The notes: generated by a model from the letters alone, not told the origin. Positions 12,570 through 34,622 are shown, numbered from the stretch's first letter. The stretch: DNA of 54,835 nt from Candidatus Methanophagales archaeon (GCA_013139985.1 WSZT01000164.1:1-54835); one strand, 5' to 3'. A program made the numbers and translations.

Positions 12570-12830
12570 GGAGAGTAAGCCCCCTTCTGTTTCCGCGGCA
12601 TTTATCTTTGCGCCCTATTTTGGCTTGCACCCACGAGGTTGGTCGATTCCATCCGCAACCATACGTCTTCATCCTTACGGAATCATCACATTAGTATGGT
12701 ACGGTACCGTTTCTATACCAGTGCCAAGACTCTCGCCTTATGCCCTCTCGGCATTCGTGCCCTTATGGTGGGGGGACTTTCCTCAGCCTTCTACGAACGA
12801 AGGCCGGCAGCCGCCCTTCCTCTCTCCTTA
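12568..12830 (-). ncRNA. rnpB: RNase P RNA (ends approximate)
   Basis: The minus strand carries the universal CR-I motif GAGGAAAGUCC (plus strand ggactttcctc around 12775-12787). It also carries the CR-V-like ACAGAAGGGGGCUUAC (plus strand gtaagcccccttctgt, 12576-12591). A terminal P1 pairing GGAGAG/CUCUCC links 12822-12827 with 12570-12575. Confidence 0.85.
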
Positions 12831-12884: not shown

Positions 12885-13985
12885 TTATCTGATAACCGGT
12901 ATAATATCGCTGATTGCCCCCTTATGCACCGGTCTTTCGTTTTGATTTATTACATTTTCACGCTTTGTATAGTCCCCGCCAAATGTCCACTTCGGCTCCA
13001 CACCGGTCATTATTGCCGATACCTTTGCCGTCCCATTGCAACCCTCATTTATCCTCGCTCCCCATATTACATTTGCATCCTGATCCAGTTCGTAAGTAAG
13101 TAACTCTACAATGTCATTTGTCTCTTTCATCGTTAGGTCAGAACCACCAGTCACATGTATAAGAGCACCTTTTGCACCCTTATAATCTGCATCTAACAGG
13201 GGATGACTGAATGCATCTTCTACCACCGCTTCGGATTTGTTCTCCGCTTTCGACGTCTCGCCTACAAGCATCACTGCAACACCGCCTGCTTCCATTACCG
13301 ACTTGAGGTCCGCGAAGTCAAGATTTATCAGAGAAGGCTGTGTTATCGTCTCCGCAATACCCTGTATCGTGTCTGCAATCAACGTATCCATGGTTTTAAA
13401 AGCCTCATTTACCGGAAGATTTCCTGCATATTTTAGCAACTTGTCGTTTTCCAGCACGATAACCGTATCGGTAGACTCCCTCAACTTCTTTATCCCCTCT
13501 GCTGCTTTGTCTCTTCTTCGCCTTTCCACTTCAAAGGGAAACGAGACCATCGCAACTACGATCGCGCCGGCTTCCTTCGCTATTTCTGCGATAACAGGCG
13601 CAGCCCCGGTGCCTGTTCCTCCGCCCATGCCGGCGGTGAGGAACACGAAGTTTTTTCCTTCGAATAACTCCCCTAACACTTCCCGGTCTAATTCCGCTGC
13701 CTTTCGCCCTACATCGGGAGCGCCCCCGGATCCTAATCCGTGGGTGAGCGTTTTCCCTATCAATAGCTTCCGTTCACATTCTATCGAATCCAGGTGCAGC
13801 TTGTCAGTATTTATAGCTATTCGATCAACACCATCTAATCCGCCCAAATCCTCTAATCTACCCATAGAGTTGTTTCCCGCTCCACCAACGCCAACTATTG
13901 CTAACCGCGGCACTCCAAACCACTCCTCCATTTCTTCGCCCATGCTTAGCCCCTCAGAGCAATAACCTAACACTTTATCCATCAT
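12885..13985 (-). CDS. ftsZ: cell division GTPase FtsZ
   Basis: Contains IVGVGGAGNN and the tubulin signature GMGGGTGTGAAPVIAEIAKE, plus NLDFADLKSVM. The true start may be an internal Met. Confidence 0.9.
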   Translation of the reverse strand: MMDKVLGYCSEGLSMGEEMEEWFGVPRLAIVGVGGAGNNSMGRLEDLGGLDGVDRIAINTDKLHLDSIECERKLLIGKTLTHGLGSGGAPDVGRKAAELDREVLGELFEGKNFVFLTAGMGGGTGTGAAPVIAEIAKEAGAIVVAMVSFPFEVERRRRDKAAEGIKKLRESTDTVIVLENDKLLKYAGNLPVNEAFKTMDTLIADTIQGIAETITQPSLINLDFADLKSVMEAGGVAVMLVGETSKAENKSEAVVEDAFSHPLLDADYKGAKGALIHVTGGSDLTMKETNDIVELLTYELDQDANVIWGARINEGCNGTAKVSAIMTGVEPKWTFGGDYTKRENVINQNERPVHKGAISDIIPVIR

Positions 13986-15820: not shown

Positions 15821-16975
15821 ATGCGGATATTTGTGATAGGCTACGGGCAGGCGGGAGGAAGAGTAGCGGATTCTTTTTTAGAATTTGCTAAGCGAACGGG
15901 GCAAAATTTTGTTGCTCGTGCATTGGCCATTAATACGGCAACGTCTGATCTGATGGGACTGAAGAATATACCGATGGAAGATCGGTTGCTTATAGGTGAA
16001 TCACTAACGAAAGGGCATGGAATAGGGGCCGATAATGAATTAGGTGCGAAGGTAGCTACGGAGGAGCTTTATACCATTCAGAGTGAAATAGATGAGCGGG
16101 GGTCGTATAAGGTTGATGCTTTTTTACTAATAGCTGGTTTAGGTGGAGGGACGGGTTCTGGTGGTGCGCCTGTATTAGCAAGGCGGCTGAAGAAGTTATA
16201 TGAGGAGCCAGTTTATGGACTCGGTATTCTACCATCGAAAGATGAAGGGAGTTTGTATTCCTTAAATGCTGCAAGGAGTCTGGTGACTCTGGTAAACGAA
16301 GTGGATAATCTCTTCTTGTTCGATAACGATGCGTGGAAGAAGGGCGGAGAGAGCGTAAAAGAGGCTTTTGCAGATATAAATAACGAGATAGTGAGACGAT
16401 TCGGGCTTTTGTTCGGCGCAGGAGAAGCAAATGAGGTAGGGCAGATGGTGGTAGATGCAGCAGAGATAATTAACACGCTTAAAGGGGGCGGGATATCATC
16501 AATTGGCTATGCGGCAGAAGAAATAGCAAGTGAAGGTATTCTAAAGAAGTTCTTTGGAAATAAAAAAGGAAACGTAGAAAAGTTAGATTCCGTTACAAGG
16601 ATTACGTCTTTGGTTAGGCGAGCAATAGCAGGCCGATTAACGATACCATGCGATGTTTCAACAGCGGAAAAGGCGTTGATAATTGCTGCGGGACCACCAA
16701 AGGAATTGAGTAGAAAGGGTATAGAACGGTCAAAGGTGCGAATAGAAGATATGATAAGGGGGACAGAAGTAAGGGGGGGGGATTTCCCACTTGTAAAGGG
16801 GCAGCATGTAGCCACAGTCGTTCTTTTTTCTGGCGTGTCTGATGTTCCACGGATAAAAGAGTTACAAAATACTGGCGCAGAAGCACAGGAGGTCATAAAG
16901 GAAGTGACAACAGAGAAAGAGAAAGACTATAAAGAGCTAATGGATACTAACGATAATATAAAACCGTTGTTCTGA
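15821..16975 (+). CDS. cetZ: tubulin/FtsZ-superfamily protein CetZ
   Basis: Contains MRIFVIGYGQAGGRVADSF, KGHGIGADNELGA, GLGGGTGSGGAPVLARRLK, VYGLGILPSKDEG and DNLFLFDNDAW, the CetZ-type motifs. Confidence 0.9.
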   Translation: MRIFVIGYGQAGGRVADSFLEFAKRTGQNFVARALAINTATSDLMGLKNIPMEDRLLIGESLTKGHGIGADNELGAKVATEELYTIQSEIDERGSYKVDAFLLIAGLGGGTGSGGAPVLARRLKKLYEEPVYGLGILPSKDEGSLYSLNAARSLVTLVNEVDNLFLFDNDAWKKGGESVKEAFADINNEIVRRFGLLFGAGEANEVGQMVVDAAEIINTLKGGGISSIGYAAEEIASEGILKKFFGNKKGNVEKLDSVTRITSLVRRAIAGRLTIPCDVSTAEKALIIAAGPPKELSRKGIERSKVRIEDMIRGTEVRGGDFPLVKGQHVATVVLFSGVSDVPRIKELQNTGAEAQEVIKEVTTEKEKDYKELMDTNDNIKPLF

Positions 16976-18232: not shown

Positions 18233-18318
18233 GTCGGGATAGCCAAGAGGTCTAAGGCGGTAGGTTGCTAACCTACTTCCCCTTACGGGGAGCGAGGGTT
18301 CGAATCCCTCTCCCGGCG
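18233..18318 (+). tRNA. tRNA-Ser (anticodon GCU), class II with a long variable arm
   Basis: Manual fold: acceptor GUCGGGA/UCCCGGC, anticodon stem GUAGG/CCUAC with loop UUGCUAA, variable arm UUCCCCUUACGGGGAGC, T arm GAGGG-UUCGAAU-CCCUC, discriminator G. Confidence 0.9.
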
Positions 18319-18321
18319 TTT

Positions 18322-19026
18322 ATGCTAAACTTACTTTCGTATCTATATGGAGGGATATTAAAGAGGGGTATATTGAACTCACCGATCCACGTGAAGCATG
18401 TTCTTCTTGTTATGGACGAAACAGATCTTCTTTCCACTGACTACGCGGATGCGAAAGGTACGGGAATGGAGAAGCTGCGGCATTTCATAAAGTGGTGTCA
18501 TGGACTGGAGATAAATGTTATAAGCGTTTATGTCGGCGTTATACGAGAAGGGATGGATAAGAACTTGTTGGAGCGGGCATACGCACAGCTAATGGAAGAG
18601 ATAACAAAGGCGTTGAGTAAAGAAAAAGCTTTGATTGCGCTCTATGATGACTCTTTTGAACCTACGCATGCAAAATACAGGGGGGCAGAGAAGGGCAATA
18701 ACGGAAAAAAGATAAATATTTCTATCGGCTTTGGTGGGCGAAGCGAGTTAACGAAAGCTATAAAAGAGATTGTGGGGCGAGTAGAGAGAGGGGAACTAGA
18801 GCCCGAAGAGATAGACGAGAAACTGCTGGAATCACAATTGATATTCAAGTCAGAACCCGACCTCGTTATAAGGTCTGGTGCAACCCGTTTAGCGGATTTC
18901 CTGATATGGCAATCGGTGTATAGCGAATTTTATTTCACTGATGTTAACTGGTTAAAATTCAGGAAGATCGATCTGTACCGTGCAGTTCGTGATTTCCAGT
19001 GGCGAGAGCGCAGATATGGACGCTGA
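18322..19026 (+). CDS. cis-prenyltransferase (UppS) family protein with a degenerate N-terminal catalytic motif
   Basis: The C-terminus IRSGATRLADFLIWQSVYSEFYFTDVNWLKFRKIDLYRAV..RERRYGR is UPPS-like. The N-terminal H(V/I)AxIMDGNRR motif reads HVLLVMDETDLL. Start set to the ATG at 18322, because the track ORF start lies inside the tRNA. Confidence 0.75.
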   Translation: MLNLLSYLYGGILKRGILNSPIHVKHVLLVMDETDLLSTDYADAKGTGMEKLRHFIKWCHGLEINVISVYVGVIREGMDKNLLERAYAQLMEEITKALSKEKALIALYDDSFEPTHAKYRGAEKGNNGKKINISIGFGGRSELTKAIKEIVGRVERGELEPEEIDEKLLESQLIFKSEPDLVIRSGATRLADFLIWQSVYSEFYFTDVNWLKFRKIDLYRAVRDFQWRERRYGR

Positions 19027-20984: not shown

Positions 20985-22382
20985 TCACAATCCCTCCAAA
21001 ATCTTCGCGAAATTCTTATCGGCATTCCGCTTCTTAAACTTTACCAATTTCGCAATCTCCTTCTTATCCACTTCAGCGCGTGTGAACTCAGTAGCATCCA
21101 GCAGCTTCTTACCTGCTTTTGACCGTACAATCACAGTAGAATACCCATCAGGACTGCCAACCGAGCCGATAGCAATGTCGGCAAGCCGGGATGCGAAATC
21201 GTCACAGAACGAACAGCCTTCTCTTATCTCCGACTCCATCTCCCGCACATCGCATGAATATTCCTTGCCACCACCCGTAACGATATATTTCCCTTTGCTT
21301 ATCTGCGTCTTTTCCGCTTTATCGAGTTCAACGCCAAATGTCCGTTTCGTATACGCTTTTAAACCCAAGTAATCGAAACTCTCAAAACAGAACAAGCCTA
21401 ATATGGTCAGCTCCGCGCCAGGATATTCGCGTTCCAAATCCCACAGTTGCTGCAGCTTCCGCACCGCTCTGACTTCACACGGTGTTCCAACCACTGCAAT
21501 TCGTCTCTTACCCGCTTTCAGCGCTGCCTCTAGCTTAGACATCAGAGGCACACGCAGATATTTCGTTCCTCTCGCACTCAATATTCCGGCTACATCATCA
21601 GCTACCACATACTCCGCATTATAACCCGCCGCTCGCTGCACCACAAGTGCAGCATCAAAGATATTATTCTCAATACCTGCAATGAGCAGTGCGGTAACCA
21701 TTCCACCGTCTTGGCCACCCGTAGCAGCCTTACCGGCAATAATATCGTTATAAACGCCCAGTTCTTCATCACGTTCGCCCACCAGGTATTTATCCTCCAG
21801 TTCCGCTATGTCCTCGGCCGTAGTCGGATATATATTCTTCTCCCGCTTTATTGCGTCCGTGGGGCATACAAGAGCGCACGAACCACAACCGATGCAATCG
21901 TCAGATAGCTCCCTGTACGGTGTACCAACTTCGCGCTCTACACCACGACTTATAACATTAATCGCCGAGACACCAACTAACTCATCACAGACCCGTGTGC
22001 ACAATCCGCAAAGAATACATCGTTCATCTTCCAATACGAATCGCGGCTTTACAACGCCATATTCACGTGCCATGCTTTGTATCCGCCCTTCTTCCGGACA
22101 TCGTGCCAGCAGCAGTTCCAGGAGCATCTTCCTTATCGCTATAATATCCGGCGACTTAGTGCTCACGACCAGTCCCTCCTCAGCGGGATAATTACAGGCA
22201 GTGACAACCTTCTTCCGGCCTCGTTTCTCTATCTCCACTGAGCATAACCTGCAAGCGCCAAGAGGCTCTAACGCGGGATGATAACATAACGTAGGAATAT
22301 CAATGCCAATGCTTCGCGCAGCCTCTAATATTGTCTGCCCTTCCTCTATTTTGACACCCCTACCGTCAATTTCCATTTTCAT
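20985..22382 (-). CDS. fusion protein: [2Fe-2S] plus 2x[4Fe-4S] ferredoxin N-terminus (HydA/NuoG-N-like) joined to an FrhB/FdhB-type F420-binding flavoprotein C-terminus
   Basis: N-terminus: IDGRGVKIEEGQTILEAARSIGIDIPTLCYHP..GACRLCSVEI. Fe-S motifs: CILCGLCTRVCDE and CIGCGSCALVCPTDAI. FrhB-like part: GGQDGGMVTALL..IAVVGTPCEVRAVRKL..ILGLFCFESF..GCSFCDDFASRLADIAIGSVGSPDGYSTVIVRSKAG. Confidence 0.85.
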   Translation of the reverse strand: MKMEIDGRGVKIEEGQTILEAARSIGIDIPTLCYHPALEPLGACRLCSVEIEKRGRKKVVTACNYPAEEGLVVSTKSPDIIAIRKMLLELLLARCPEEGRIQSMAREYGVVKPRFVLEDERCILCGLCTRVCDELVGVSAINVISRGVEREVGTPYRELSDDCIGCGSCALVCPTDAIKREKNIYPTTAEDIAELEDKYLVGERDEELGVYNDIIAGKAATGGQDGGMVTALLIAGIENNIFDAALVVQRAAGYNAEYVVADDVAGILSARGTKYLRVPLMSKLEAALKAGKRRIAVVGTPCEVRAVRKLQQLWDLEREYPGAELTILGLFCFESFDYLGLKAYTKRTFGVELDKAEKTQISKGKYIVTGGGKEYSCDVREMESEIREGCSFCDDFASRLADIAIGSVGSPDGYSTVIVRSKAGKKLLDATEFTRAEVDKKEIAKLVKFKKRNADKNFAKILEGL

Positions 22383-24337
22383 CGCTCGTCCCCCCCTCCT
22401 TCGCCCTTTGCCTTTTGCCCTTTGCCCCTTTCTATCACCCTCTCCGCTTCCGGAATAGGCGGTGGAACTGGTTCACCCGAAATCTTCATCACTGCACCCA
22501 CCTTAGACGGACAAACGTCATAGCAAATACCGCACTTTATGCATTTTGTCTGATCTATCACGTGTATCACGCGCTTATCGCCTTCTATCGCACCCTCGGG
22601 ACAATTCTTCATGCAGAGCCGGCATGCAGTGCACTTATCGGGCTCTATATAAAAAGAGATCAGGTTTTTACATACCAGTGCCGGGCATCTCCTCTCCTTT
22701 ATATGCGCTTCATATTCGTCGCTGAAATACCGTATGGTACTTAAAACCGGATTAGCGGCTGTTGTCCCCAAAGCACATAGTGACGCGCTCTTCATCACAT
22801 CCGATATCTCTTTAAGCAGTTCTATATCTCCCTCTCGGCCTTTGCCGGCAACGATACCATTCAGTATCTCACGCATACGCTTTAAGCCCTCACGACAGGG
22901 CACGCATTTGCCACACGATTCATTACAGAGGAAATCCACAAAGTACCGCGCTATATCCACGATACACGTGTCTTCGTCCATAACGATCATACCGCCCGAG
23001 CCCATCATCGAACCCAACTTCGTAAGTGCATCGAAATCCACTGGTGTGTCGAGATACTGTTCGGGAATCACTCCGCCTGATGGGCCTCCGGTTTGGACAG
23101 CTTTGAATCTCTTCCCTCCGGGAATACCACCACCGATCTTATATATTATGTCCCTCAGTGTGGTGCCCATGGGTACTTCCACTAAACCGGTATTGTTCAC
23201 CTTGCCCACAAGCGAGAAGATCTTTGTCCCTTTGCTGCCTTCCGTTCCAATCGAGTTAAACCAATCGGCACCTTTTCTTATTATCAGTGGCACCGTTGCA
23301 TAAGTCTCAACATTATTTAAATTGCTCGGCTTGTCCCAAACGCCACTGTCAGAGGTATGGATATATTTAGGTCTCGGTTCGCCTACCTTCCCTTCTATCG
23401 CATTCATTAACGCACTCGATTCGCCGGAAACGAAAGCGCCCGCACCTCTGTGCACCTTTACGTCGAATTCGAATCCCGAGCCCAAGATGTCTTTTCCCAG
23501 GAACCCGTATTCCCTCGCCTGTTCGAGAGCAATAGCAAGATTCTTCACCGCTAGTGGATACTCCTGACGCACGTAAACGAAACCCTGCTGAGAGCCTATG
23601 GCGTATGCCGCGATTGCTAAGCCCTCAAGAACCCTGTGTGGATTCCCTTCCATAATTGATCGGTCCATATATGCACCGGGATCGCCTTCATCGCAGTTGA
23701 CGATTACATATTTGGGCTCGCCCGTAGCATTTCGTGTAGACTCCCATTTCCTACCTGCGGGAAAGCCACCACCGCCACGACCACGTAAATTCGCTCTTTT
23801 CACTTCTTCCAATACCTCTTCGGGCGTCATCTCGTGCAATACCTTGGCTAATGCCAGGTACCCGCCAAGAGCGATGTAATCATCAACATTTGCCGGATCA
23901 ACCCATAGGTTACCGCTAAAAACAACACGAGTTTGGTATTTGTAGAATGGGATCTCATGTTCATGGACAATTCGTGCTCCCGTGCTAGGGTCGTAGTAAA
24001 GCAGCCGCTCAATAATTTCATTCTCCTTTATGGTCTTGGCGATAATTTCCGGAACATCCTCGGGCGTTACATTGAGGTAACATAGTTCTCCTGGATAAAT
24101 CACTATTATTGGGCCTCGCTCACAAAATCCGTGACAGCCTGTCCTTCGGACGCCCACATCTTCTGTTAAACCTTGTTTCTCCAACTCAGCCTGAATTGCC
24201 GCGGCGACCGCATCGCTGCCCGTGGCATGGCATGCCGTTCCTGAACATATTGTGATATATGGCTTACTCAAGTCCCGTTTTGAGGTGATATTGTTTCTCA
24301 GTGCCTTCAATTCCGCTTTTGAGTTTATTCTTGGCAT
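22379..24337 (-). CDS. NuoF/HydB-like NAD(P)H-binding FMN flavoprotein with an extra N-terminal [2Fe-2S] and C-terminal 2x[4Fe-4S] domains
   Basis: Contains TICSGTACHATGS..CHGFCERGP, GRGGGGFPAGRKWE, NCDEGDPGAYMDRSIMEGNPH and ESCGKCVPCREG..SLCALG. The C-terminus has CTACRLCMKNCPEGAI and CIKCGICYDVCPS. An ATGA overlap links it to the downstream gene. Confidence 0.9.
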   Translation of the reverse strand: MPRINSKAELKALRNNITSKRDLSKPYITICSGTACHATGSDAVAAAIQAELEKQGLTEDVGVRRTGCHGFCERGPIIVIYPGELCYLNVTPEDVPEIIAKTIKENEIIERLLYYDPSTGARIVHEHEIPFYKYQTRVVFSGNLWVDPANVDDYIALGGYLALAKVLHEMTPEEVLEEVKRANLRGRGGGGFPAGRKWESTRNATGEPKYVIVNCDEGDPGAYMDRSIMEGNPHRVLEGLAIAAYAIGSQQGFVYVRQEYPLAVKNLAIALEQAREYGFLGKDILGSGFEFDVKVHRGAGAFVSGESSALMNAIEGKVGEPRPKYIHTSDSGVWDKPSNLNNVETYATVPLIIRKGADWFNSIGTEGSKGTKIFSLVGKVNNTGLVEVPMGTTLRDIIYKIGGGIPGGKRFKAVQTGGPSGGVIPEQYLDTPVDFDALTKLGSMMGSGGMIVMDEDTCIVDIARYFVDFLCNESCGKCVPCREGLKRMREILNGIVAGKGREGDIELLKEISDVMKSASLCALGTTAANPVLSTIRYFSDEYEAHIKERRCPALVCKNLISFYIEPDKCTACRLCMKNCPEGAIEGDKRVIHVIDQTKCIKCGICYDVCPSKVGAVMKISGEPVPPPIPEAERVIERGKGQKAKGEGGGDER

Positions 24338-24354
24338 TTCTTCCTCCTACCTAC

Positions 24355-24816
24355 CTACTCATACGTTTCTAAAATCCCCTCTACCATTGCTGGCGTAATC
24401 TTGCCGTGATAAATACCATCTACCACTATCACCGGTCCCATGGCACAACAGCCAAGGCAATTTACTCGCTTCAAACTAAACCGCATGTCAGGCGTTGTCT
24501 CCCCACCTTTTATCTTTAAATCCCCCTCTAGTCGATCCAGAATCTTCGGCGCACCTCGTACCTGGCAGGCAGTGCCAAGACAAACCTGTATTATGTGTCG
24601 ACCTACCGGCTCCAGGCTCATAGCTTCATAAAAACTCGCTATTCGGTATACATGGCTTTTCGGAATCTGCATCCGCGCGCTTATTTGCGTTATCGCTTCG
24701 TTCGAGATCCAGTTGAATTCGCTCTGGATGTCCAACAGTAACTGAATCAAAACACCTTCTTCGCCTTTATAGCGCTCTATTATCTCATCCACTCTTTTCA
24801 GGTCTATTTCTACCAT
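24355..24816 (-). CDS. NuoE/HoxE/HydC-like thioredoxin-fold [2Fe-2S] subunit
   Basis: Contains VCLGTACQVRGA..VNCLGCCAMGPVIVVDG, the four-Cys NuoE pattern. A GGAGG-type SD precedes the downstream gene. Confidence 0.9.
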   Translation of the reverse strand: MVEIDLKRVDEIIERYKGEEGVLIQLLLDIQSEFNWISNEAITQISARMQIPKSHVYRIASFYEAMSLEPVGRHIIQVCLGTACQVRGAPKILDRLEGDLKIKGGETTPDMRFSLKRVNCLGCCAMGPVIVVDGIYHGKITPAMVEGILETYE

Positions 24817-24825
24817 TTTACCCCA

Positions 24826-24969
24826 TCACCTCTCACCCGCTGCTCTTTTTAGCCCTATGGGCGTCAGCATTTCTCTTCCATAAAGCTTCAAAGGCTTAAT
24901 TGCCATCTCATCTGCTCCAAGCGACGAAATCAAATAATCATCCGGCAAATTAGAAATCTCAAAATCCAT
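24826..24969 (-). CDS. possible 47-aa leader ORF of the NuoE/NuoF/FrhB operon (speculative)
   Basis: Translation is MDFEISNLPDDYLISSLGADEMAIKPLKLYGREMLTPIGLKRAAGER*. GAGGTGGA lies 7 nt upstream of its ATG, and its stop is 9 nt before the nuoE-like ATG. It is below the ORF-track size cut-off and has no recognisable motif. Confidence 0.3.
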   Translation of the reverse strand: MDFEISNLPDDYLISSLGADEMAIKPLKLYGREMLTPIGLKRAAGER

Positions 24970-25147
24970 CCTTTCTTCCACCTCTCGCTGTATAATCTTC
25001 ACTCCACCTAAAGAAGCTGAGCTTTATCATTACCGATGAACTTATTTTGTAGATGGGCTTATAAATGTTGCGATTTTTTCCGGCTCTTTTGATCTAACAT
25101 TCTTAAATAAATAAATTATACCTTTGGGATAAATAAGTAATTCAAAG

Positions 25148-26146
25148 ATGAAACACGAACAAGAGATAGAGCAATTGAATTCGCAGGCACGTGCATACTC
25201 GTCCAAATTAAATGATACCCTAAACGAACTAAAAAGAGTTATTGTCGGTCAGGAACTAGTATTGAGTAAATTGCTGATCTGCCTTATCGCCGAGGGGCAT
25301 GTTCTTCTTGAAGGTGTGCCCGGTCTGGCGAAGACATTAATGGTAAAGACGTTATCAGATACAGTATCAGCGCAATTCTGCCGTATTCAATTCACCCCGG
25401 ACCTGCTGCCTGCGGACATTACCGGAACGAAGATCTATGACCACCGGACAGCGAGCTTTAGCACGCAAAAAGGGCCCATCTTCAATAATTTCATTCTCGC
25501 CGATGAGATAAACCGGGCACCACCAAAGGTGCAATCCGCTTTGTTGGAAGCCATGCAGGAGCGGCAGGTGAGCATACAGGGCGAAACGTTCATGCTAGAT
25601 CGCCCGTTCCTGGTTCTGGCAACACAAAACCCCATAGAGACCGAGGGCACATACAAACTACCGGAAGCTCAAGTTGATAGATTCTCGTTTAAGCTGCTGG
25701 TTGACTACCCGAATAAGGACGAGGAGCGGGTAATAATCCAGCGGAATACGCAGGGTATTGTGCTAGCACCCGGTAAAGTCCTTACTGCTGGGGATATAAT
25801 CGAAATGCAACAGTTTAATCAAAAGATTTATGCCGATGAGAAGATAGAGGAATATGTTACAGAACTTGTAGATGCAACGAGGTATCCTGAGAATTATACG
25901 CTGGGGAGGGATATTAATGGTCTGATCGAGTACGGAGCTTCGCCAAGAGCGTCTATATGGTCTATTCTTACCGGTAAAGCGCACGCATTACTAAATGGTC
26001 GTGGCTATGTTATCCCTGAAGATATTAAAGCGGTCGTACATGATGTGCTCAGGCATCGTATAATTCTGACCTATGAAGCCGATGCAGAGGGCATTACTTC
26101 TGACCATATTATTGATATGCTTGTTGCGAATATCAAGGCGCCGTAA
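25148..26146 (+). CDS. MoxR-family AAA+ ATPase
   Basis: Contains VIVGQELVLSKLLICLIAEGHVLLEGVPGLAKT, ILADEINRAPPKVQSALLEAMQE and ATQNPIETEGTYKLPEAQVDRF. Confidence 0.9.
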   Translation: MKHEQEIEQLNSQARAYSSKLNDTLNELKRVIVGQELVLSKLLICLIAEGHVLLEGVPGLAKTLMVKTLSDTVSAQFCRIQFTPDLLPADITGTKIYDHRTASFSTQKGPIFNNFILADEINRAPPKVQSALLEAMQERQVSIQGETFMLDRPFLVLATQNPIETEGTYKLPEAQVDRFSFKLLVDYPNKDEERVIIQRNTQGIVLAPGKVLTAGDIIEMQQFNQKIYADEKIEEYVTELVDATRYPENYTLGRDINGLIEYGASPRASIWSILTGKAHALLNGRGYVIPEDIKAVVHDVLRHRIILTYEADAEGITSDHIIDMLVANIKAP

Positions 26147-27959: not shown

Positions 27960-30281
27960 TTATTCAGTGTTTTTATATGGACAGGCATCAGCAAATTTTA
28001 CAATATCTTCTCCGGAATTGTCCATAATACTAATATTCCACACATCGCGGTAGAAGTTTTTATGGGATTGAAATATCTTAACGGGAACCCCCTGTGATAC
28101 ACAAATGCCTGCCAAAAACATGAGTTGAGCATCGTGCATCTTATTATCGTTTGATCCTCTCTGCACACCCGCTAAATTAACTAACACCGCCCGAGCATTT
28201 ATTAGACTTTCCGCTAATCCCTCAGGAATAAAACATTGATCCAATATGTTAATAGCCACTTTTGTATAGCTGTACCTTTCCGTCAGTTTTCTTACCAGTT
28301 CTGTTTCATGATTAAATGACACTACATAAACTTCATTACTTTTATCCCTATCGTTTGGCGAATTAAAGTTATTAATATGCTTAAAAACTCTAGGTACCTG
28401 GTATAAATCGTTGATTTTATTATTGTTAAACTTTTCAGTTTTCCACCCTAATTTATCTGGGATTTCATCGACTGTTTGGTAGCTTTTATACAGTTGTTCT
28501 CCAAGTTTAGCTTTAATATCCTCAGATTTATCATCACATAAGAAAACAACCCTCCTTCCTAGTCCAAGAGCAAAACCGCATTCAAAAAATACGTTTGGAT
28601 TAAAATCTGATACTTCAGCGAGCATCCATAAATTTCTGAATACCTTTGGGCATACTTCATCACATAATACTCGACCCGTTTCTAGCTTCTCGGGCGTCGT
28701 CCACTTATCGGGCTCTACAGCAAGATTAAGCTTTTTAAGTTTGTTACCTAACACCTCAACAAACTCCTTTTTGCTAGCGGACGATGCCAAAAAAACGCCT
28801 CGTTTATTTAAGAACCGATCAGTACTACAGACACGATAAATAAAACTACAGTACCTGTCTGTTCTATAAATTCTTGGATTCTTCCATGGACGTCCATCAC
28901 CAACTATAGTTCTTGGATTAATGTGGTACGGTGCACCTTCCTTCATCTTTTTCCTCTCCCTGATTAGAGAATTAAGAATAGGATGAATTAGGTAAAAATC
29001 AGAGACTGGTAAGATCTTAGATTCAAAAATCTTGTCTCCGGGCCGCTCAAACTTTTGAATAATATTACCATTTTCTTCATCAATATCAACATAACCTAGT
29101 AATCCTACTTTATACAAATTGCAAAAAACATGATTTTTTTCACAGTTTTTCTGGTTGTTATATGTGCTGCATATTCCCTTTATTTCACTTTTGCTAAGTA
29201 TATCTGAATCTATTAAGTCGAACAATTCATCAAAAGGCCTAATAAAATCTAAAAAAGGTTTAGTTTCTGCTAGATATGTCCGCGCGATTGTTGTTGCTTC
29301 CCTGTTGACCACGGATCTTATATTTACTTCTGTCCGTTCATTGGGATAAATAGCAGCTAGAGCGCCCCCAATGACCATAAAATCTCTAGGTCGTTTTAAG
29401 GTATGACGATAAATATAGTCAAAAATATCCTCTTTTTGATTGTCAACTCGTGCATTTGCTATTTTGTTATCGCTTAACCCCAAGAAGGCGTAAATAAGAT
29501 CTTCATTAATAAAATTGGCGTTGACGAGGTCTTTCTTATTCATTCGTTTAATATTTTTTTCAAAGATGTCTTTTAGTTCTGATTTAGTATATCCAATATC
29601 TAATGCGCTTCCTTTTTTTTGCAATCCTATGGGATCATTTCTCAGTAATCTCTCCCACGCTTCTTTTCTAATAGATGCAAAAACTTTTATATGGCTGCTT
29701 TGTCCAGATAAAACCCAGATAGCATTGATTAATCCAATTTGAGCATTATACCAGAGTTCTGAAGATAAAACTCCTGTAACACTAGACCTTTCACCGTGTT
29801 GTCCTAAATGACCTCCAAAATATTCATCCACATTATCAATAAAAATTGCGACACCAGAACGAACTCGATTTAGGATCGAGGTTAGTCTATATTGTTTTCT
29901 TGCAATTTTAATGATACTGCTATGACTACGATCTAAAATATTTGTGAGATATCCAAAAGGTGTAACAAGCTGAGGGTCATTTACCATCTCGAGAATTTCG
30001 TCAGGAAGACTTCCAATCACTTTATTCAGTTCTTGTTCCTTTTCTTTATCCCCTTTCCGTTCATAACTTATTTTAAGAGTCTTAATGACGGACAAAGAAA
30101 TAGATAATAACCAAATATTGGTCCAATATTCAATGTTTCCTAATGCCTCTATTGTTTCAAAACTAAAGGTAAAAGCTTGTTGGGCTCTATCTAATGGCTC
30201 ATCCTTATGGATGAAATATATCTCCTCTTCTTGTAAATCTTTCTTATGTTTTTTTTGGTAGATGTATCGCTTATACATCAA
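27960..30281 (-). CDS. STAND/NACHT-like NTPase body (Walker B onward) with tandem C-terminal TIR/NDT-like Rossmannoid domains; lacks its own Walker A
   Basis: The 773-aa ORF lies in a visibly A+T-rich block. Walker B-like VAIFIDNVDEYF is followed by IKVFASIRKEAW. C-terminal motifs are GVFLASSASKKEF..NVFFECGFALGLGRRVVFL and VYVVSFNHE..LMFLAGICVSQGVPVKIF. Confidence 0.7.
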   Translation of the reverse strand: MMYKRYIYQKKHKKDLQEEEIYFIHKDEPLDRAQQAFTFSFETIEALGNIEYWTNIWLLSISLSVIKTLKISYERKGDKEKEQELNKVIGSLPDEILEMVNDPQLVTPFGYLTNILDRSHSSIIKIARKQYRLTSILNRVRSGVAIFIDNVDEYFGGHLGQHGERSSVTGVLSSELWYNAQIGLINAIWVLSGQSSHIKVFASIRKEAWERLLRNDPIGLQKKGSALDIGYTKSELKDIFEKNIKRMNKKDLVNANFINEDLIYAFLGLSDNKIANARVDNQKEDIFDYIYRHTLKRPRDFMVIGGALAAIYPNERTEVNIRSVVNREATTIARTYLAETKPFLDFIRPFDELFDLIDSDILSKSEIKGICSTYNNQKNCEKNHVFCNLYKVGLLGYVDIDEENGNIIQKFERPGDKIFESKILPVSDFYLIHPILNSLIRERKKMKEGAPYHINPRTIVGDGRPWKNPRIYRTDRYCSFIYRVCSTDRFLNKRGVFLASSASKKEFVEVLGNKLKKLNLAVEPDKWTTPEKLETGRVLCDEVCPKVFRNLWMLAEVSDFNPNVFFECGFALGLGRRVVFLCDDKSEDIKAKLGEQLYKSYQTVDEIPDKLGWKTEKFNNNKINDLYQVPRVFKHINNFNSPNDRDKSNEVYVVSFNHETELVRKLTERYSYTKVAINILDQCFIPEGLAESLINARAVLVNLAGVQRGSNDNKMHDAQLMFLAGICVSQGVPVKIFQSHKNFYRDVWNISIMDNSGEDIVKFADACPYKNTE

Positions 30282-30445
30282 AAAAGGGTTTTTCCGATAC
30301 CTTTTGGAGCAACGGCAAAATACATATTTTCTCTCTCTTCAGACTCAATAAATTCCTTTATGGCGGGCGTTATGACTAAATCCTCCGACGGATTTAGCTC
30401 CCCAACTTCGCCAATCCTTATCGCATCAACAATCCAAGGTTTCAT
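30278..30445 (-). CDS. 55-aa ORF carrying the Walker A (P-loop) that belongs to the downstream NTPase; separated from it by a frameshift
   Basis: Translation is MKPWIVDAIRIGEVGELNPSEDLVITPAIKEFIESEERENMYFAVAPKGIGKTLF*. The stop overlaps the ATG of the 773-aa ORF inside a T6 run (minus strand). Adding one T gives ..GIGKTLFLMYKRYIY.. in frame. Confidence 0.6.
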   Translation of the reverse strand: MKPWIVDAIRIGEVGELNPSEDLVITPAIKEFIESEERENMYFAVAPKGIGKTLF

Positions 30446-30559
30446 TTTATATTTCTCCTTATTTTCATCAATTTGTCGTGTGGGATAGTTTTATCAAAAT
30501 GTCGTATAAAATGGTCTTATAGCGGATGTTTTATATATAACTTTCGATTTTTTTTTGAT

Positions 30560-30587
30560 CAAACTTTTTTTTTGAAAAAAAAGTTTG
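30560..30587. terminator. perfect A/T-run palindrome downstream of the archease gene (candidate terminator or hairpin)
   Basis: Two 13-nt perfect inverted arms, CAAACTTTTTTTT and AAAAAAAAGTTTG, are separated by TG and flanked by a further T-run. The site lies about 55 nt past the archease stop. Confidence 0.35.
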
Positions 30588-30640
30588 CTGCGTAAGCCTT
30601 TTTCGGTAAAGCCTCTAAATTTTCTTTAGAAAAAGGGTTT

Positions 30641-31066
30641 TTAGACATCTAAAACGACTCTTGCCTTCCAAACCTCATTCTTCTTTACCTCCATCATGTT
30701 ATAGGTGACCGCTTTTATTATTATGCCGGATACATGTTTTGAGGGGTCGAATTTACCACCTTTGCATGTTCCCTGTATACTGAAATTGGATTCGTCTATC
30801 GCTATGTCAAAGGATCTCATAACTAGCGATTTCGAGTCAAACAAAAAAATCAGCTCGTCCAGCCAATCAAACATCAAGCTATAAAGGTCTTCGGAGTTTA
30901 TCTCTATTTCTCGCTCCTCCGCCCCCTCTATTTCGTCTACATCGGTCATGAGACTGTACATGGCAATAGCGGCATTAGCATAAAGCTCCTCTAACGTGTC
31001 GCCATACACCTCAAATCCGACATCCGAGGGATGCTCGATATATTTTATTTTCTCTTCTCGGTTCAT
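30641..31066 (-). CDS. archease (RtcB tRNA-ligase cofactor family)
   Basis: 141-aa ORF. Contains YIEHPSDVGFEVYGDTLEELYANAA and KAVTYNMMEV..ARVVLDV. Confidence 0.9.
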   Translation of the reverse strand: MNREEKIKYIEHPSDVGFEVYGDTLEELYANAAIAMYSLMTDVDEIEGAEEREIEINSEDLYSLMFDWLDELIFLFDSKSLVMRSFDIAIDESNFSIQGTCKGGKFDPSKHVSGIIIKAVTYNMMEVKKNEVWKARVVLDV

Positions 31067-31094
31067 TTCGGGGTTATGTTTTAGGTTTTAGGGG

Positions 31095-32732
31095 TTATGG
31101 ATTTGGTACTCTTTGCATTATCGCTCTGACATAATCGTCCGCGTTCAGATCAACGGTTTTGAACTCTGCGAATTTGCTCAATACGTGTTTTTCAATCTCC
31201 CTGAGCCCTTCTTCGGTCTTCGCCTCCATCCGTAGAATTATCACAGGCGATGTGTTCGAGTGGCGTACAAGCGCCCATCCGTTCTCCTTCACAAACTCTA
31301 TCTTCACACCGTCTATATCATTACCTCTTTCGTCTGTCCTTCGTTTATATAGCTCGGGGTTAGTTGCAGCAAGCTCACGATAATAGTCCTCTACGGCATC
31401 GCAAACACGCCCTTTCTCTTCATCGCTCACTACGGGGATCCTTATCTCCGGCGTGTTCACGTATCTCTTCAAGAAGTCCTCAAGCAGTACATCCACCACT
31501 TTCACGTCGCTTTTAGTCTCTGATTCCTTGGCAGTAAGCAGTAAAAGCTCGGAAAATGCGAATACCGCATCGTCTGCACGATTATTCTTCGCGAAATACA
31601 CATGGCCTGACATCTCACCGCCTGCAACTGCATTTAGCTCTTCCATCTTCGATTTGATAAACGAAAAACCCGTTTTCCACTCGACTGGCACGCCCTCATT
31701 CTCTATGATTATCTCTCGTATCGCATCAGAGCATTTTGTATCGTAAACGATTTTTGCATGATGATGCTCCTTTAAGATGTGCTTGCAGAGCAGAGCGAGG
31801 ATCTGTTCACCGATTATCATCTTTCCAGTCGGTGATATTGCACCTGCTCGATCACCGTCACAGTCGGAAGCCAGCCCAATATGCGCGTTCTTTCGCGCTA
31901 CTTCGGCATGTAAATCCTCCAGGAACCGCGGAATCGTTGGATCCGGCAGATGGTTAGGGAAATTGCCGTCCGGCTCGGAATAAAGCTCGAATACTTCGGC
32001 ACCCAAATCACGGAATAGCGGTGGTGCTATCACCCCCGTAGTTCCATTTCCAGCGTCATAAACGATTCTTAAGCCGGTCAACGGCTTCCTTTTGGCCGCC
32101 GGTAGCTTTTCTAGCTCTTGTTCCGCGATGGCAAGTGCGGCTCTTAAAGAACTCTTGCCCGCAAGAGCGTCTAATGTCAGTTCTTCCCATCTCTCGCGCA
32201 GTACAACGTTCGCAACAATCATCGCATGATAATCCGCCAGTACGTCCACCACTTCATGCTCGCCTTTAACACTGCTTACGTGCGTTTTGAATCCTTCTTC
32301 AAGCTGCTTCGCTGTTTGGAACATCTCTCGTATTTGGTCCTCTGTGGCGCTTTCTGTGCCAACACAGGGCTTGAATCCGTTCCATTCCTTGTCCAGGTGG
32401 CTGCCCGTGACTTCCACGCCGCCATCTGCATTGAATAGCCAAGTCGCGAAATACATTAGTGGCGTGGAGCTTACCTTTTCAGCAGGTGCTATGTCTATGA
32501 CATGGACACCTTTGCTCATAAGCGCGTCGGCAAAGGCGGTTTTCAATCGCGGCGAGCTGTTTCTGACGTCCTTGCCCACAACCACTCTTAGCTCTTGCGG
32601 CTCTTTACCTCGGTGCTTGCGCAGTAGCTCTACATATGCCAGCCCGGTCAGGGTGCAGAAGTCGTCACTGAGCTGGATGTCTGCTATGCCTCTTATATCG
32701 TTCGCACGATATGCGGTTTTATCTACTATCAT
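31095..32732 (-). CDS. alpha-D-phosphohexomutase family protein (phosphomannomutase/phosphoglucomutase-like)
   Basis: Contains VEVTGSHLDKEWNGFK (phosphoserine loop), ASDCDGDRAG (metal loop) and GGEMSGHVYF (sugar loop). Confidence 0.85.
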   Translation of the reverse strand: MIVDKTAYRANDIRGIADIQLSDDFCTLTGLAYVELLRKHRGKEPQELRVVVGKDVRNSSPRLKTAFADALMSKGVHVIDIAPAEKVSSTPLMYFATWLFNADGGVEVTGSHLDKEWNGFKPCVGTESATEDQIREMFQTAKQLEEGFKTHVSSVKGEHEVVDVLADYHAMIVANVVLRERWEELTLDALAGKSSLRAALAIAEQELEKLPAAKRKPLTGLRIVYDAGNGTTGVIAPPLFRDLGAEVFELYSEPDGNFPNHLPDPTIPRFLEDLHAEVARKNAHIGLASDCDGDRAGAISPTGKMIIGEQILALLCKHILKEHHHAKIVYDTKCSDAIREIIIENEGVPVEWKTGFSFIKSKMEELNAVAGGEMSGHVYFAKNNRADDAVFAFSELLLLTAKESETKSDVKVVDVLLEDFLKRYVNTPEIRIPVVSDEEKGRVCDAVEDYYRELAATNPELYKRRTDERGNDIDGVKIEFVKENGWALVRHSNTSPVIILRMEAKTEEGLREIEKHVLSKFAEFKTVDLNADDYVRAIMQRVPNP

Positions 32733-32816
32733 ATTTTTATTTGCTTTTTGTTAATTACGTTTTTGCTTTACATCTTCCCTCTATGTACTCAAAAAGCATC
32801 AATAACTACCAGTAGC

Positions 32817-34610
32817 CTAGATCGGGAGGTAGAATGGTTCTCGATCTAGACGATGAAGGATGTAGTCAGCGTCGGGGTATTTTTCTAATATTTTGTTTTT
32901 AAATTCCTCCGCTTTATCTAAGCTATAAAAAATCCTTCCTACTTCCACTAATGCTCTATCATTTCTACGCCTTAAAGCCTCATTTAGCATCATATTTAGT
33001 CTCTTATCCGCTTCTTCTAATCTCCCTAACCTCTTCATTACGTTAAAATATACAGATGGTTTTTCATCAAAAAGTTTTTTTTCTGTAACCCCACCGTCAT
33101 CAAGCAGTTCTAGCATTTCTTGCAACGTACCTGCTTTGAATTTGAACATAACTTCTACTTTTTTCACTCGTAAGGATATATCCATATCAATAATATCAGA
33201 ATAATTCTCGAATAATTCCATAGCATCTTCAGGACGCTCCTTCTTAATATAAATATCGAGAATTTCTCCAAGAATTTCACTTTTTTCTTTAATCACGTCT
33301 AAAAGTCGAAGATAGTGCTCTAAAGCCATTTCCGATTTATCATACTTCTTATACGCTTCAGCTAATCTCCTCTCAACTGCAATCATATCCTCGGGATTTA
33401 ATTCGAGATATTTTTCTACTATTGCTAATTCAAACTCTGGCTCTTCCCGAGAGGATAATTCCCAGTTCATAAAAAGAGAAACGTATTTTGATAGTGTCTT
33501 AGGATTGTCAATTCCAAAAGTCATCCATAAGTCTTGAAATGCACCTAATATCTTTTTCCTCCCAGCATTGCGGAGGATATAGAAATCTATGAGCGTTTCA
33601 AGACTTTTTGGGTGCGAATAAGTTAGCACCAGTCCTTCCAATTCCTCTTGTGCTTTATCCGGATGGTCTAACAGGTTAGCAGTGATTTCTTTTAGGATAC
33701 TGTCAAGTTTTGGTACAATAACAGTATTAGGTATGATTTTTGAAAACAGTATTAGATAATCCCGTAATAAATGTGTTTCTTTAGTAACCCCTTCCTCGCC
33801 TATTCTCAAGGACTCTGATAATTCCAATTTTCTATCAGAGTGAAGTATACAAATATCCTGAACATTTAACTGGCTCTCTAAATCTTCTACTGGCTCGTTT
33901 AGAAAATGTTGTATATCCCCTATTATTTGCCTTTCTATTACTTTATCTTTTTCTTCTTCTGGAAAAGGAATACGGGTAAGCGCAAAAGTTACCCCTATTG
34001 GCTTTTGTCCGGGCAATCGTTCAACTGCCTGGATACTGCGGAGTATCTGACGTGCGCCCTCAATATTTTCTCGATTGTTGACGATTAGAAACACTACTTT
34101 GTCAGGCAAAAGGGACGTGCATAAACCGCTCATCTCTGTTACGCCTGTTCTGGAATCTATAAGTAGAAAATCAGGGTTAAATTCTTTCCTTATTCTCTCC
34201 TTTAGTTCAAGAAAGAAAGGGAGACCTTCGCTGTATTCTTCATAAAACAATTTGTGCCAATTTATCGCTGCTAATTTTCGCCAATAACCTGCAGAAAGGA
34301 CATCACCTGCGGGAATCAATCGGATTTCGCCCTGGGTTTTTGATGGATGAATAAGTTCCAATGTAAATTCATCTAATGATTCTGGAATGACTTTATTATG
34401 CATAAATTCAGATATGTAGTCCACCAAACCCTTCCTAATATCTGTTGTTTTGACGAGTTGTGGGAATTTGTAATGAAGTCCAGGCGCCTCTAAGTCGAAG
34501 TCCATAATGCAAACATTTTGACCAAAGCGGGAAAGATAAATCGCAATGTTCGCTAAAGCTAATGTGCGTCCAACCCCTCCTTTATATGAATAGAAAGTTA
34601 TTGTTTCCAT
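32817..34610 (-). CDS. KGGVGR-variant ParA/MinD-like (SIMIBI) ATPase fused to a TPR-like helical-repeat C-terminal half
   Basis: Contains ITFYSYKGGVGRTLALANIA, a deviant Walker A with Arg in place of the usual Lys. Also MDFDLEAPGL and FLLIDSRTGVTE (Walker B). The C-terminal roughly 300 aa are helical and repeat-like. Confidence 0.8.
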   Translation of the reverse strand: METITFYSYKGGVGRTLALANIAIYLSRFGQNVCIMDFDLEAPGLHYKFPQLVKTTDIRKGLVDYISEFMHNKVIPESLDEFTLELIHPSKTQGEIRLIPAGDVLSAGYWRKLAAINWHKLFYEEYSEGLPFFLELKERIRKEFNPDFLLIDSRTGVTEMSGLCTSLLPDKVVFLIVNNRENIEGARQILRSIQAVERLPGQKPIGVTFALTRIPFPEEEKDKVIERQIIGDIQHFLNEPVEDLESQLNVQDICILHSDRKLELSESLRIGEEGVTKETHLLRDYLILFSKIIPNTVIVPKLDSILKEITANLLDHPDKAQEELEGLVLTYSHPKSLETLIDFYILRNAGRKKILGAFQDLWMTFGIDNPKTLSKYVSLFMNWELSSREEPEFELAIVEKYLELNPEDMIAVERRLAEAYKKYDKSEMALEHYLRLLDVIKEKSEILGEILDIYIKKERPEDAMELFENYSDIIDMDISLRVKKVEVMFKFKAGTLQEMLELLDDGGVTEKKLFDEKPSVYFNVMKRLGRLEEADKRLNMMLNEALRRRNDRALVEVGRIFYSLDKAEEFKNKILEKYPDADYILHRLDREPFYLPI

Positions 34611-34622
34611 GATGAAACCACC

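Follow-up and report, generated by a model that had tools for sequence, protein, structure and literature searches.

Schut et al. (2022) defined the BfuABC (HydABC-like) family and predicted within it an "F420-Bfu" (Type 1, BfuB clade 45), an uncharacterised enzyme represented by two sequences from Methanosaetaceae and proposed to oxidize reduced nicotinamide adenine dinucleotide (NADH) and ferredoxin with formation of F420H2; Wor-Bfu and Bam-Bfu were assigned to the same clade (PMC9304861). Chadwick et al. (2022) list an FrhB8/NuoF-Trx/Trx gene cluster in genomes of anaerobic methanotrophic archaea (ANME; PMC9012536, Fig 16, S2/S3 Data), with accessions for ANME-2a/b/c/d and most ANME-1, including AG-394-G06 (S2 Data). 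Here we analyse bfuCBA, a three-gene operon on the minus strand of a 54,835-nucleotide stretch of DNA from a Candidatus Methanophagales archaeon (GCA_013139985.1 WSZT01000164.1:1-54835), which we call the window. The operon is an ortholog of this named, uncharacterised enzyme class, and both its architecture and its occurrence in ANME have already been published. We favour, with a probability of roughly 0.55, the reading that it encodes a soluble heterotrimeric (or higher-order) flavin and iron-sulfur (Fe-S) oxidoreductase of the BfuABC type with an FrhB head, the predicted F420-Bfu. Sequence, conservation, and predicted fold support the interpretation that such an enzyme would connect NAD(P)H, ferredoxin, and F420.

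The window proteins share with F420-Bfu a BfuA that combines one [2Fe-2S] and two [4Fe-4S] clusters with an FrhB end and no His-ligated cluster, together with a complete BfuBC core, and Methanothrix orthologs (L006-L008, L011) were found with the same synteny. They differ in that the window copy, which shares 55-57% (BfuA) and 62-68% (BfuB) of its residues with the Methanothrix orthologs, belongs to ANME-1, whereas Schut et al. described F420-Bfu from Methanosaetaceae only, with a biosynthetic role (PMC9304861). The FrhB8/NuoF-Trx/Trx cluster is the same gene cluster, the AG-394-G06 copy being the closest to that of the window. For Chadwick et al., FrhB8 is a paralog without an assigned function; they draw no connection between the cluster and the bifurcating HydABC/Bfu family, the missing Fno, or ferredoxin recycling (PMC9012536). 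Because the enzyme class has been published and the ANME cluster catalogued, the operon is of low novelty, contrary to what an earlier account of the window drawn from its sequence alone (the sequence-only reading) had implied. The statement in that reading that no biochemically characterised enzyme has this composition still stands, since none was found in the PDB or the searchable literature. What the present analysis adds is a full verification, a broader taxonomic range than in the Bfu paper, and a link to ANME-1 physiology.

The three genes are tightly coupled (table 1). The TAG stop codon of bfuC is followed by a spacer, gtaggtaggaggaagaa, and then by the ATG of bfuB, and bfuB and bfuA overlap by an ATGA; the whole operon (24816-20985, minus strand) spans 3.8 kb. 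Open reading frame (ORF) calls and direct sequence reading bear out this layout, which the sequence-only reading had described in the same terms. Profile searches with FrhB_FdhB N and C, Complex1_51K, the thioredoxin-like 2Fe-2S family, and Fer2_4 all scored well above their cut-offs, and all of the flavin mononucleotide (FMN)/NADH and FrhB motifs quoted earlier are present in the translations. Across 12-13 orthologous archaeal loci, no cofactor ligand of the three proteins is missing or varies.

The first two genes encode a complete HydBC-type core. BfuC is, as had been proposed, a NuoE/HydC-like [2Fe-2S] protein (Pfam 2Fe-2S_thioredx, 1.4e-49); its C1 ligands (C79, C84, C120, C124) are invariant in 12 loci, and in the PDB it is matched best by C subunits of bifurcating enzymes (7t2r_C, 1.7e-40; 8a6t_C; 9mqx_C). 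BfuB carries the motifs GRGGGGF (residues 186-192) and GAGAFVSGESSAL (298-310) and an SLBB domain detected with Pfam. In the family definition the flavobicluster consists of the B1 [4Fe-4S] cluster, FMN, and the C1 [2Fe-2S] cluster (PMC11829005), and the four B1 ligands of BfuB (C475, C478, C481, C521) are invariant and align with those of the solved BfuBs. The additional sites B2 (3Cys+1His), B3, B4, and B5 are missing from non-bifurcating NuoF homologs, and deletion of B3/B4 abolishes bifurcation in the HydABC of T. kivui (PMC11829005). All of these bifurcation-distinguishing sites are present in BfuB, where they align residue for residue with five solved chains and are invariant in 13 archaeal BfuBs. 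The B5 ligands (C31, C36, C68, C72) align with the B5 cysteines of 7t2r_B, 9mqx_B, and 8a6t_B; the B2 site (C458, H545, C551, C556), at which the family has Zn or Fe-S, is kept in 5/5 aligned solved chains as well as in 13 loci; and the B3/B4 [4Fe-4S] ligands (C569/572/575/579 and C599/602/605/609) fall in two CxxCxxCxxxCP motifs (569-580 and 599-610) that align with 7t2r_B, 9mqx_B, 8a6t_B, 7q4v_B, and 9bov_B. From the role described for B3/B4 (PMC11829005), this domain is presumed to be the ferredoxin-reducing end. Near full-length PDB matches of BfuB include NiFe-HydABCSL (7t2r_B, 1.2e-230), Wor-Bfu (9mqx_B, 5.9e-229), NfnB (9n5u_B, 3.3e-196), and the HydB subunits of T. kivui (8a6t_B), A. 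woodii (7q4v_B), and T. maritima (7p5h_B); the closest solved relatives are thus B subunits of biochemically bifurcating Bfu enzymes. Complex I NuoF matches at ~1e-110, restricted to the core residues 150-550. The extra N-terminal [2Fe-2S] domain and the two C-terminal [4Fe-4S] motifs that had been noticed in this NuoF-like protein, and their likeness to those of bifurcating enzymes, are therefore upheld by Pfam, the cysteine map, the B2-B5 alignment, and the PDB matches.

This core bears directly on the need for bifurcation. A simple non-bifurcating NAD(P)H:F420 oxidoreductase replacing Fno, in which the extra Fe-S sites of BfuB would be structural or regulatory only, would suit the universal lack of Fno in ANME-1, in which the path of NADPH electrons to F420 is an open question (PMC9012536); the potentials of NAD(P)H and F420 are similar, so that coupling is not thermodynamically required, and B2 and B5 can be Zn sites, dispensable for electron transfer (PMC11829005). 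We nevertheless regard such an enzyme as unlikely, given that the known non-bifurcating homologs lack B2-B5 and that bifurcation in T. kivui depends on B3/B4. Furthermore, the 16/16 B2-B5 ligands are invariant although the orthologs are only ~62-70% (BfuB), and down to 39% (BfuA), identical, which indicates selection on them, and a 139-kDa machine with ~9 clusters would be far too elaborate for what Fno, with its one small subunit, accomplishes.

One residue of BfuB sets the family apart. S304 (23426-23428) is invariant and family-specific and stands where the five aligned solved BfuB chains have the conserved Cys of a GAGAxxCGE loop, so that the nucleotide loop reads GAGAFVSGESSAL in place of GAGAYICGEETAL. 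The Ser-for-Cys change is a clade signature common to some Dehalococcoidia. We considered it as a sign of NADP(H) preference and dropped the idea, because Wor-Bfu, of which there is a structure with NADH, has the GESS form too, and the loop allows no inference on the nicotinamide; a lost metal ligand was ruled out as well, the B2 ligands being those given above.

The third protein, BfuA, begins like HydA/NuoG. The four ligands of its [2Fe-2S] cluster are invariant across loci and are followed by the dicluster ligands C122/125/128/132 and C163/166/169/173. BfuA does not have the His-ligated cluster of HydA/NuoG, in agreement with the published description of clade 45 (PMC9304861), and at the site of that cluster only the invariant C95 remains. 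As an observation in its own right, the family-specific C95 (22098-22100, in "ARCP") is the sole remnant of the lost motif, and Wor-Bfu has Ala at this position. Pfam and NCBIfam scans found no H-cluster, Fe-hydrogenase large-subunit, or molybdopterin domain in BfuA. Instead, the protein continues into a full FrhB/FdhB domain, as the sequence-only reading had held: FrhB_FdhB_N (residues 220-284) is matched at 7.9e-15 (55.2 bits vs a cut-off of 22), FrhB_FdhB_C (293-431) at 1.4e-37 (129.3 bits vs 23.3), and the NCBIfam FrhB subfamily at 3e-57. In FrhB, flavin adenine dinucleotide (FAD) is held by the loops QDGG, G-T/S-K-Y, and one in which a cluster-ligand Cys lies next to the isoalloxazine (PMC3930138). 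The corresponding loops of BfuA (QDGG 224-227, GTKY 272-275, GLFCFESF 329-336), together with the four cysteines of the FrhB [4Fe-4S] cluster (C302, C332, C390, C393), do not vary across the 54 homologs and 13 loci compared.

Structural comparisons place the same two halves in different company. Residues 4-178 have their best PDB match in Wor-Bfu (9mqx_A, 3e-43), and residues ~160-460 match FrhB (9r51_B, 5e-39), Fsr (1.3e-38), and 8riu_B; the Wor-Bfu match (residues 1-178) and the Fsr/8riu_B match both cover the dicluster domain. An AlphaFold2 model built from a 54-sequence alignment (predicted local distance difference test, 88.7; predicted template modelling score, 0.85) matches the F420-reducing CODH component of Ca. 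Ethanoperedens (8riu_B) at 1e-25 over 359 aligned columns, which include the ferredoxin and FrhB domains, and Fsr at 2.6e-24; the F420-reducing Fwd complex (8rja_E) is matched as well. Against FrhB the target-normalised template modelling score is 0.85 for 9r51_B (root-mean-square deviation, rmsd, 2.2 A), 0.82 for 6qgr_B, and 0.85 for 4ci0_C, and the modelled N-terminus superposes on Wor-Bfu BfuA with an rmsd of 2.0 A at 44% identity. The FrhB identity of the C-terminal domain is therefore confirmed, the model superposing on F420-reactive FrhB modules. Identity to the closest F420-enzyme relatives (Frh, Fsr, and the F420-reducing CODH/Fwd of Ethanoperedens) is 28-33%. HCAR (5dqr), a ferredoxin-dependent enzyme, fits distinctly worse (6e-17, 19-22% identity).

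Several points weigh against the reading of the operon as an F420-Bfu. FrhB membership is no proof of F420 use: HCAR is among the fold matches, and the Thermococcus FrhAGB reduces rubredoxin (PMC13333549). We found no F420-bound FrhB structure that would define the substrate residues, and support for an F420 pocket in BfuA is indirect; NADH and NADPH cannot be told apart by sequence, NADH being the presumed nicotinamide. No activity, cofactor analysis, or structure was found for any member in the PDB or the searchable literature, and in ANME-1 the transcripts of the cluster are moderate, well below those of MetF and Mcr. Finally, BfuA scores below the NCBIfam equivalog cut-offs for FrhB (TIGR03289, 165.6 vs 331.5) and FpoF (NF040616, 126.1 vs 475). 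BfuB likewise falls below that for NuoF (474.7 < 558.65), and none of the three proteins reaches an NCBIfam equivalog cut-off for NuoE, NuoF, FrhB, or FpoF, from which we conclude that they are paralogs, not orthologs, of these proteins. BfuA is a paralog distinct from canonical FrhB/FpoF, and no hydrogenase (frhA/frhG) or fpo genes were found in the operon neighbourhood.

A rival reading is a bifurcating enzyme of the Bfu type whose FrhB-like head uses a partner other than F420, be it a rubredoxin- or ferredoxin-like protein, a flavin or deazaflavin analogue, or an unknown substrate. HCAR and the Thermococcus FrhAGB are precedents for other partners within the FrhB family, BfuA lies under both cut-offs, and FrhB8 was classed as a paralog of unknown function (PMC9012536). 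This alternative appears quite unlikely, as the closest relatives in sequence and fold are all named as F420-dependent or F420-reducing, with HCAR well behind, the FAD loops that line the substrate channel are invariant, and the named hosts are all methanogen-, methanotroph-, or alkanotroph-related archaea.

To trace the distribution of the operon, one genome per GTDB species was scanned. The best match is the ANME-1 cluster archaeon AG-394-G06 (C4E22_02730-02740; BfuA 93%, MoxR 97.6%, same flanking genes), followed by Methanophagales CONS3730B06UFb1 (90%); an exact-sequence look-up of the window protein returned no record. Full-length copies occur in Methanophagales, unclassified Halobacteriota/Methanomicrobia, Methanothrix/Methanotrichaceae, a Methanosarcinales metagenome-assembled genome (MAG), and a Bathyarchaeia MAG, with two more divergent ones in "Halobacteria/Halobacteriota" MAGs. 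In 13/13 full-length loci the C-B-A order is kept, with bfuC-bfuB directly upstream of bfuA each time, so that the neighbourhood of the FrhB fusion next to nuoE/nuoF homologs, which the sequence-only reading had proposed to survey, proves conserved across archaeal lineages. The F420-Bfu family is thus wider than Schut et al. reported, and includes Methanophagales, ANME-2, Bathyarchaeia, and others. At least 120 clusters (90% identity) have the full BfuA architecture, being 57-94% identical to the query. Of 1.84 billion representatives (50% identity), searched exhaustively, only P0121 (60%) and P0122 (45%) contain full-length BfuA, and the remaining matches cover either the N-terminal Fe-S part or the ferredoxin and FrhB part; the fusion family is therefore narrow in terms of sequence. 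In the examined loci the full fusion is confined to archaeal records, and the named hosts all belong to methanogen-, methanotroph-, or alkanotroph-related groups. In bacterial relatives BfuA is short or different: L016 and L078 have no FrhB part, and other bacterial loci match residues 1-~200 of BfuA only. In a neighbour-joining tree the archaeal BfuBs group with a few Dehalococcoidia sequences that share GAGAFVSGESSAL.

Some of these relatives are worth describing for themselves. The BfuBs of L016 (Dehalococcoidaceae CAYWAU010000017; 5989-7776, 7842-12186) and L019 lie inside the archaeal F420-Bfu BfuB clade, with 72-74% identity and the same GAGAFVSGESSAL signature. The BfuA of L016 (595 aa) has a ~330-aa insert with a weak partial Pyr_redox_2 match, followed by another Fer4 dicluster domain, and a second Bfu-like operon in L016 encodes a BfuB fused to a GltD/NfnB-like Fer4_20 and Pyr_redox_2 domain (1034 aa). 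This suggests that the BC core was transferred between archaea and bacteria, with an unassigned head domain. P0123 (716 aa) matches only the ferredoxin and FrhB half (query 119-457 vs residues 380-715, 48% identity) and carries a ~380-aa N-terminal extension; it represents another FrhB fusion.

Synteny also bears on whether BfuABC is autonomous. As an input module it might dock onto a partner complex, for instance HdrABC or membrane Fqo, in the way NuoEFG does on complex I; the N-terminus of BfuA is NuoG-like, BfuBC are NuoEF homologs, and ANME-1 encode many Hdr and FrhB paralog clusters (PMC9012536). We hold this to be very improbable: no Hdr, Fqo, ferredoxin, or other gene is conserved beside the operon in the 13 loci, its neighbours in the window being moxR, rhodanese, UPP synthase, cetZ, and pheS; BfuA has no NuoG C-terminal domain; and the three proteins have no membrane-helix-like segment (maximum 19-residue Kyte-Doolittle mean, 1.1-1.6). 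Nor do the proteins qualify as a complex I N-module, as BfuA has only C95 at the HxxxCxxCxxxxxC site and no molybdopterin domain, and the operon has no nuo/fqo neighbours. A conserved fourth operon gene was considered and rejected, since the only ORFs that group across loci are antisense shadows. There is practically no chance that the operon encodes a cryptic HydABC/FdhF-type hydrogenase or formate dehydrogenase: the N-terminus of BfuA has weak NCBIfam matches to HoxU and [FeFe]-hydrogenase group A6 that might suggest it, but these are limited to residues 2-98 and 117-188 and fall well short of the required scores (149 vs 765 bits), and the domain content (Pfam, NCBIfam), with no H-cluster or molybdopterin domain, excludes it.

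For the predicted F420-Bfu, homology with Nfn-Bfu and HydABC suggests the following electron path. In BfuA, F420/F420H2 would exchange hydride with FAD in the FrhB domain; from this FAD, single electrons would pass over three [4Fe-4S] clusters, the first being that of FrhB, and then over the [2Fe-2S] cluster to the flavobicluster (B1, FMN, C1) of BfuBC. There they would be split or, in reverse, merged, with a high-potential branch leading to NAD+ at FMN and a low-potential branch leading through a mobile C1 cluster and B3/B4 to ferredoxin (Fd). The net reaction would be 2 F420H2 + NAD+ + Fd(ox) <-> 2 F420 + NADH + H+ + Fd(red, 2e-), confurcation in the reverse direction being mechanistically just as possible. 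With potentials of -280 mV for NAD, -360 mV for F420, and -500 mV for Fd (PMC9304861), this reaction would lie near equilibrium, slightly favouring F420 reduction. The same function, F420H2 formation from NADH and ferredoxin, was predicted by Schut et al. for the Methanothrix orthologs (PMC9304861).

Most ANME-1 have no Rnf, all are without Ech and HdrDE, and all lack Fno; Mer is replaced by MetF, possibly yielding NAD(P)H, and both the NADPH electron route to F420 and, more generally, the return of NAD(P)H and ferredoxin electrons to energy conservation are acknowledged open questions (PMC9012536). Ferredoxin, and possibly NAD(P)H, could plausibly be re-oxidised by a soluble enzyme that brings the F420, ferredoxin, and NAD(H) pools into equilibrium. 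The likely direction in ANME-1 would be confurcation, reduced ferredoxin from formylmethanofuran dehydrogenase and NAD(P)H passing electrons to F420, and the resulting F420H2 would be oxidised by the membrane Fqo complex. A bolder version, put forward by neither Schut et al. nor Chadwick et al., is that the complex is the missing catabolic link of reverse methanogenesis in ANME-1, replacing the absent Fno, Rnf, and Ech, and no minor biosynthetic helper; NAD(P)H from the MetF step and ferredoxin from Fwd/Fmd would then be confurcated onto F420 and delivered to Fqo. We consider this doubtful, and two hints speak for it. Among 19 tabulated ANME-1 genomes the complete cluster is present in 11 and a partial one in 5, and it is missing from 3 (GoMg4, SA, ERB6); GoMg4 and SA are the only 2/19 with Rnf (and MvhA), and ERB6 has neither the cluster nor Rnf (PMC9012536 S2 Data). 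The pattern points to F420-Bfu and Rnf as alternatives in ANME-1, and it can be no stronger than a hint because the genomes are few, related, and incomplete and because ANME-2 genomes have both. The second hint is that transcript levels of the cluster (0.46/1.40/1.92 in ANME-1 GB37 and 1.85/2.45/2.82 in GB60, in the sheet's own units) are comparable to those of Fqo subunits (~0.7-4.0), with MetF at 3.4/6.0 and Mcr at 9-11 in the same sheet (PMC9012536 S3 Data). Although similar to Fqo, such moderate levels disfavour a dominant catabolic flux. The operon, being compact (3 genes, 3.8 kb), with intact cofactor sites and many orthologs, is a tractable target for heterologous expression.

Around the operon, the immediate neighbours in the window encode a MoxR ATPase, a rhodanese, UPP synthase, CetZ, and PheRS (pheS), which are unrelated in function; the flanking genes lie on the opposite strand, and for this reason we regard bfuCBA as a self-contained three-gene unit. 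Its promoter must sit inside the divergent intergenic region (table 1), where a TTTATA element was read ~245 nt upstream of bfuC. The ORF in this region encodes 58 aa from a GTG or 47 aa from an ATG, the latter having been suggested as a leader preceding the operon. The ORF exists, but it can be aligned only with the near-identical locus L001, all differences being non-synonymous or stop-shifting. It is absent in the Methanophagales locus L002, which has an operon 90-92% identical to that of the window but an unrelated sequence in this region, and in all loci more distant than L002. We thus rejected a leader peptide, the coding sequence not being conserved across loci; the ORF is very probably no gene.

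Table 1. Coordinates of the bfuCBA operon, its encoded domains, and its upstream region in the window
Feature	Position	Strand	Size or residues	Basis or remark
bfuC (NuoE/HydC-like)	24355-24816	minus	153 aa, 17 kDa	ORF calling, Pfam
bfuB (HydB-type NuoF)	22379-24337	minus	652 aa, 71 kDa	ORF calling, Pfam
bfuA (HydA/NuoG-type Fe-S N-terminus fused to FrhB domain)	20985-22382	minus	465 aa, 51 kDa	
bfuC-bfuB spacer with GGAGG ribosome-binding site	24338-24354	minus	17 nt	Direct sequence reading
BfuB N-terminal thioredoxin-like domain	24035-24271	minus	residues 23-101	Pfam 2Fe-2S_thioredx, 2.8e-10
BfuB FMN/NAD(H) Rossmann domain	23288-23803	minus	residues 179-350	Complex1_51K, 1.7e-43
BfuB four-helix-bundle Fe-S region	22703-22957	minus	residues 461-545	NADH_4Fe-4S, 1.9e-33
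BfuB C-terminal ferredoxin domain	22499-22651	minus	residues 563-613	Two Fer4 motifs (Pfam)
BfuA [2Fe-2S] domain, ligands C33, C44, C47, C63	22152-22376	minus	residues 3-77	Fer2_4, 3.2e-18
BfuA 2x[4Fe-4S] ferredoxin-like domain	21843-22034	minus	residues 117-180	Fer4 families, cysteine map
BfuA FrhB (F420-oxidoreductase-type) domain	21000-21761	minus	residues 208-461	Pfam, NCBIfam, fold
Divergent intergenic region bfuC/moxR-like gene	24817-25147		331 nt	Contains ORF 24826-25002
moxR-like gene	25148-26146	plus		Diverges from the bfuCBA operon

The window itself is archaeal chromosome, with genes for RNA polymerase B/A'/A'', FtsZ, CetZ, and PheRS-alpha, and an archaeal RNase P RNA at 12564-12826. 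Two tubulin-family genes lie 2 kb apart, FtsZ at 12885-13985 (minus) and CetZ at 15821-16975 (plus), separated by a PRC-barrel protein gene and an ORF without match. A tRNA-Ser(GCU) at 18233-18318 overlaps the first 54 nt of the UPP-synthase-like ORF (18265-19026, with a mechanical TTG start), whose true start is probably a downstream Met because the Pfam match begins at residue 66. The region 27960-36100 is of low G+C content (0.36 vs ~0.44 elsewhere) and may be an integrated or defence island. It contains a 773-aa ORF without Pfam or PADLOC match (27960-30281, minus), a 597-aa ParA/CbiA-like ORF (32817-34610) with a match (4.9e-30) to PDC-M28B, a candidate system in PADLOC, and two ORFs without matches (34623-35249 and 35239-36096).

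Comparison with characterised systems helps to place the predicted F420-Bfu. Fno (F420H2:NADP+ oxidoreductase) is a possible functional analogue in that it joins the nicotinamide and F420 pools, but it is unrelated, small, and single-domain, with no Fe-S, flavin, or ferredoxin coupling. The "[FeFe] hydrogenase" of the first ANME-1 fosmid genome was considered as a possible earlier record of this operon and ruled out, because it has no homologs in other ANME-1 genomes according to Chadwick et al. The HydABC [FeFe]-hydrogenases (T. maritima, T. kivui, A. woodii) are the family prototype, with HydB and HydC homologous over their full length, whereas HydA has an H-cluster domain and a His-ligated [4Fe-4S] cluster, both absent in BfuA. 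The N-terminal half of Fsr, FpoF/FqoF, and the Ca. Ethanoperedens CODH/Fwd components (8riu_B, 8rja_E) have the same 2x[4Fe-4S] and FrhB (FAD, [4Fe-4S]) arrangement; these modules wire F420 to an Fe-S chain and provide the best fold matches of BfuA, but their partners are siroheme, complex-I-like, CODH, and Fwd, and none sits on a NuoEF/HydBC core. Wor-Bfu, the electron-bifurcating tungsten aldehyde oxidoreductase (PDB 9mqx; PMC12318220), comes closest to the BfuA N-terminus among solved structures and is one of the closest for BfuB and BfuC, and it shares the clade-45 features and the GESS variant of the nucleotide loop. It differs in its short BfuA (247 aa), which has no FrhB domain and receives electrons from separate WOR subunits. 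NfnABC/Nfn-Bfu (StnABC; C. saccharolyticus, S. ovata, T. sibiricus; PDB 9n5u) belongs to the Type 1 Bfu enzymes that have been characterised and shares the BC core; it has a GltD/NfnB-type FAD/NADPH head, more A-subunit clusters, and NADPH rather than F420 as third substrate; it parallels the predicted enzyme in placing a mid-potential hydride carrier at the BfuA flavin, NAD at FMN, and Fd at B3/B4. If our reading is true, the bfuCBA product would bring a deazaflavin into the Bfu family for the first time, and among archaeal Bfu enzymes it would be only the second to be characterised.

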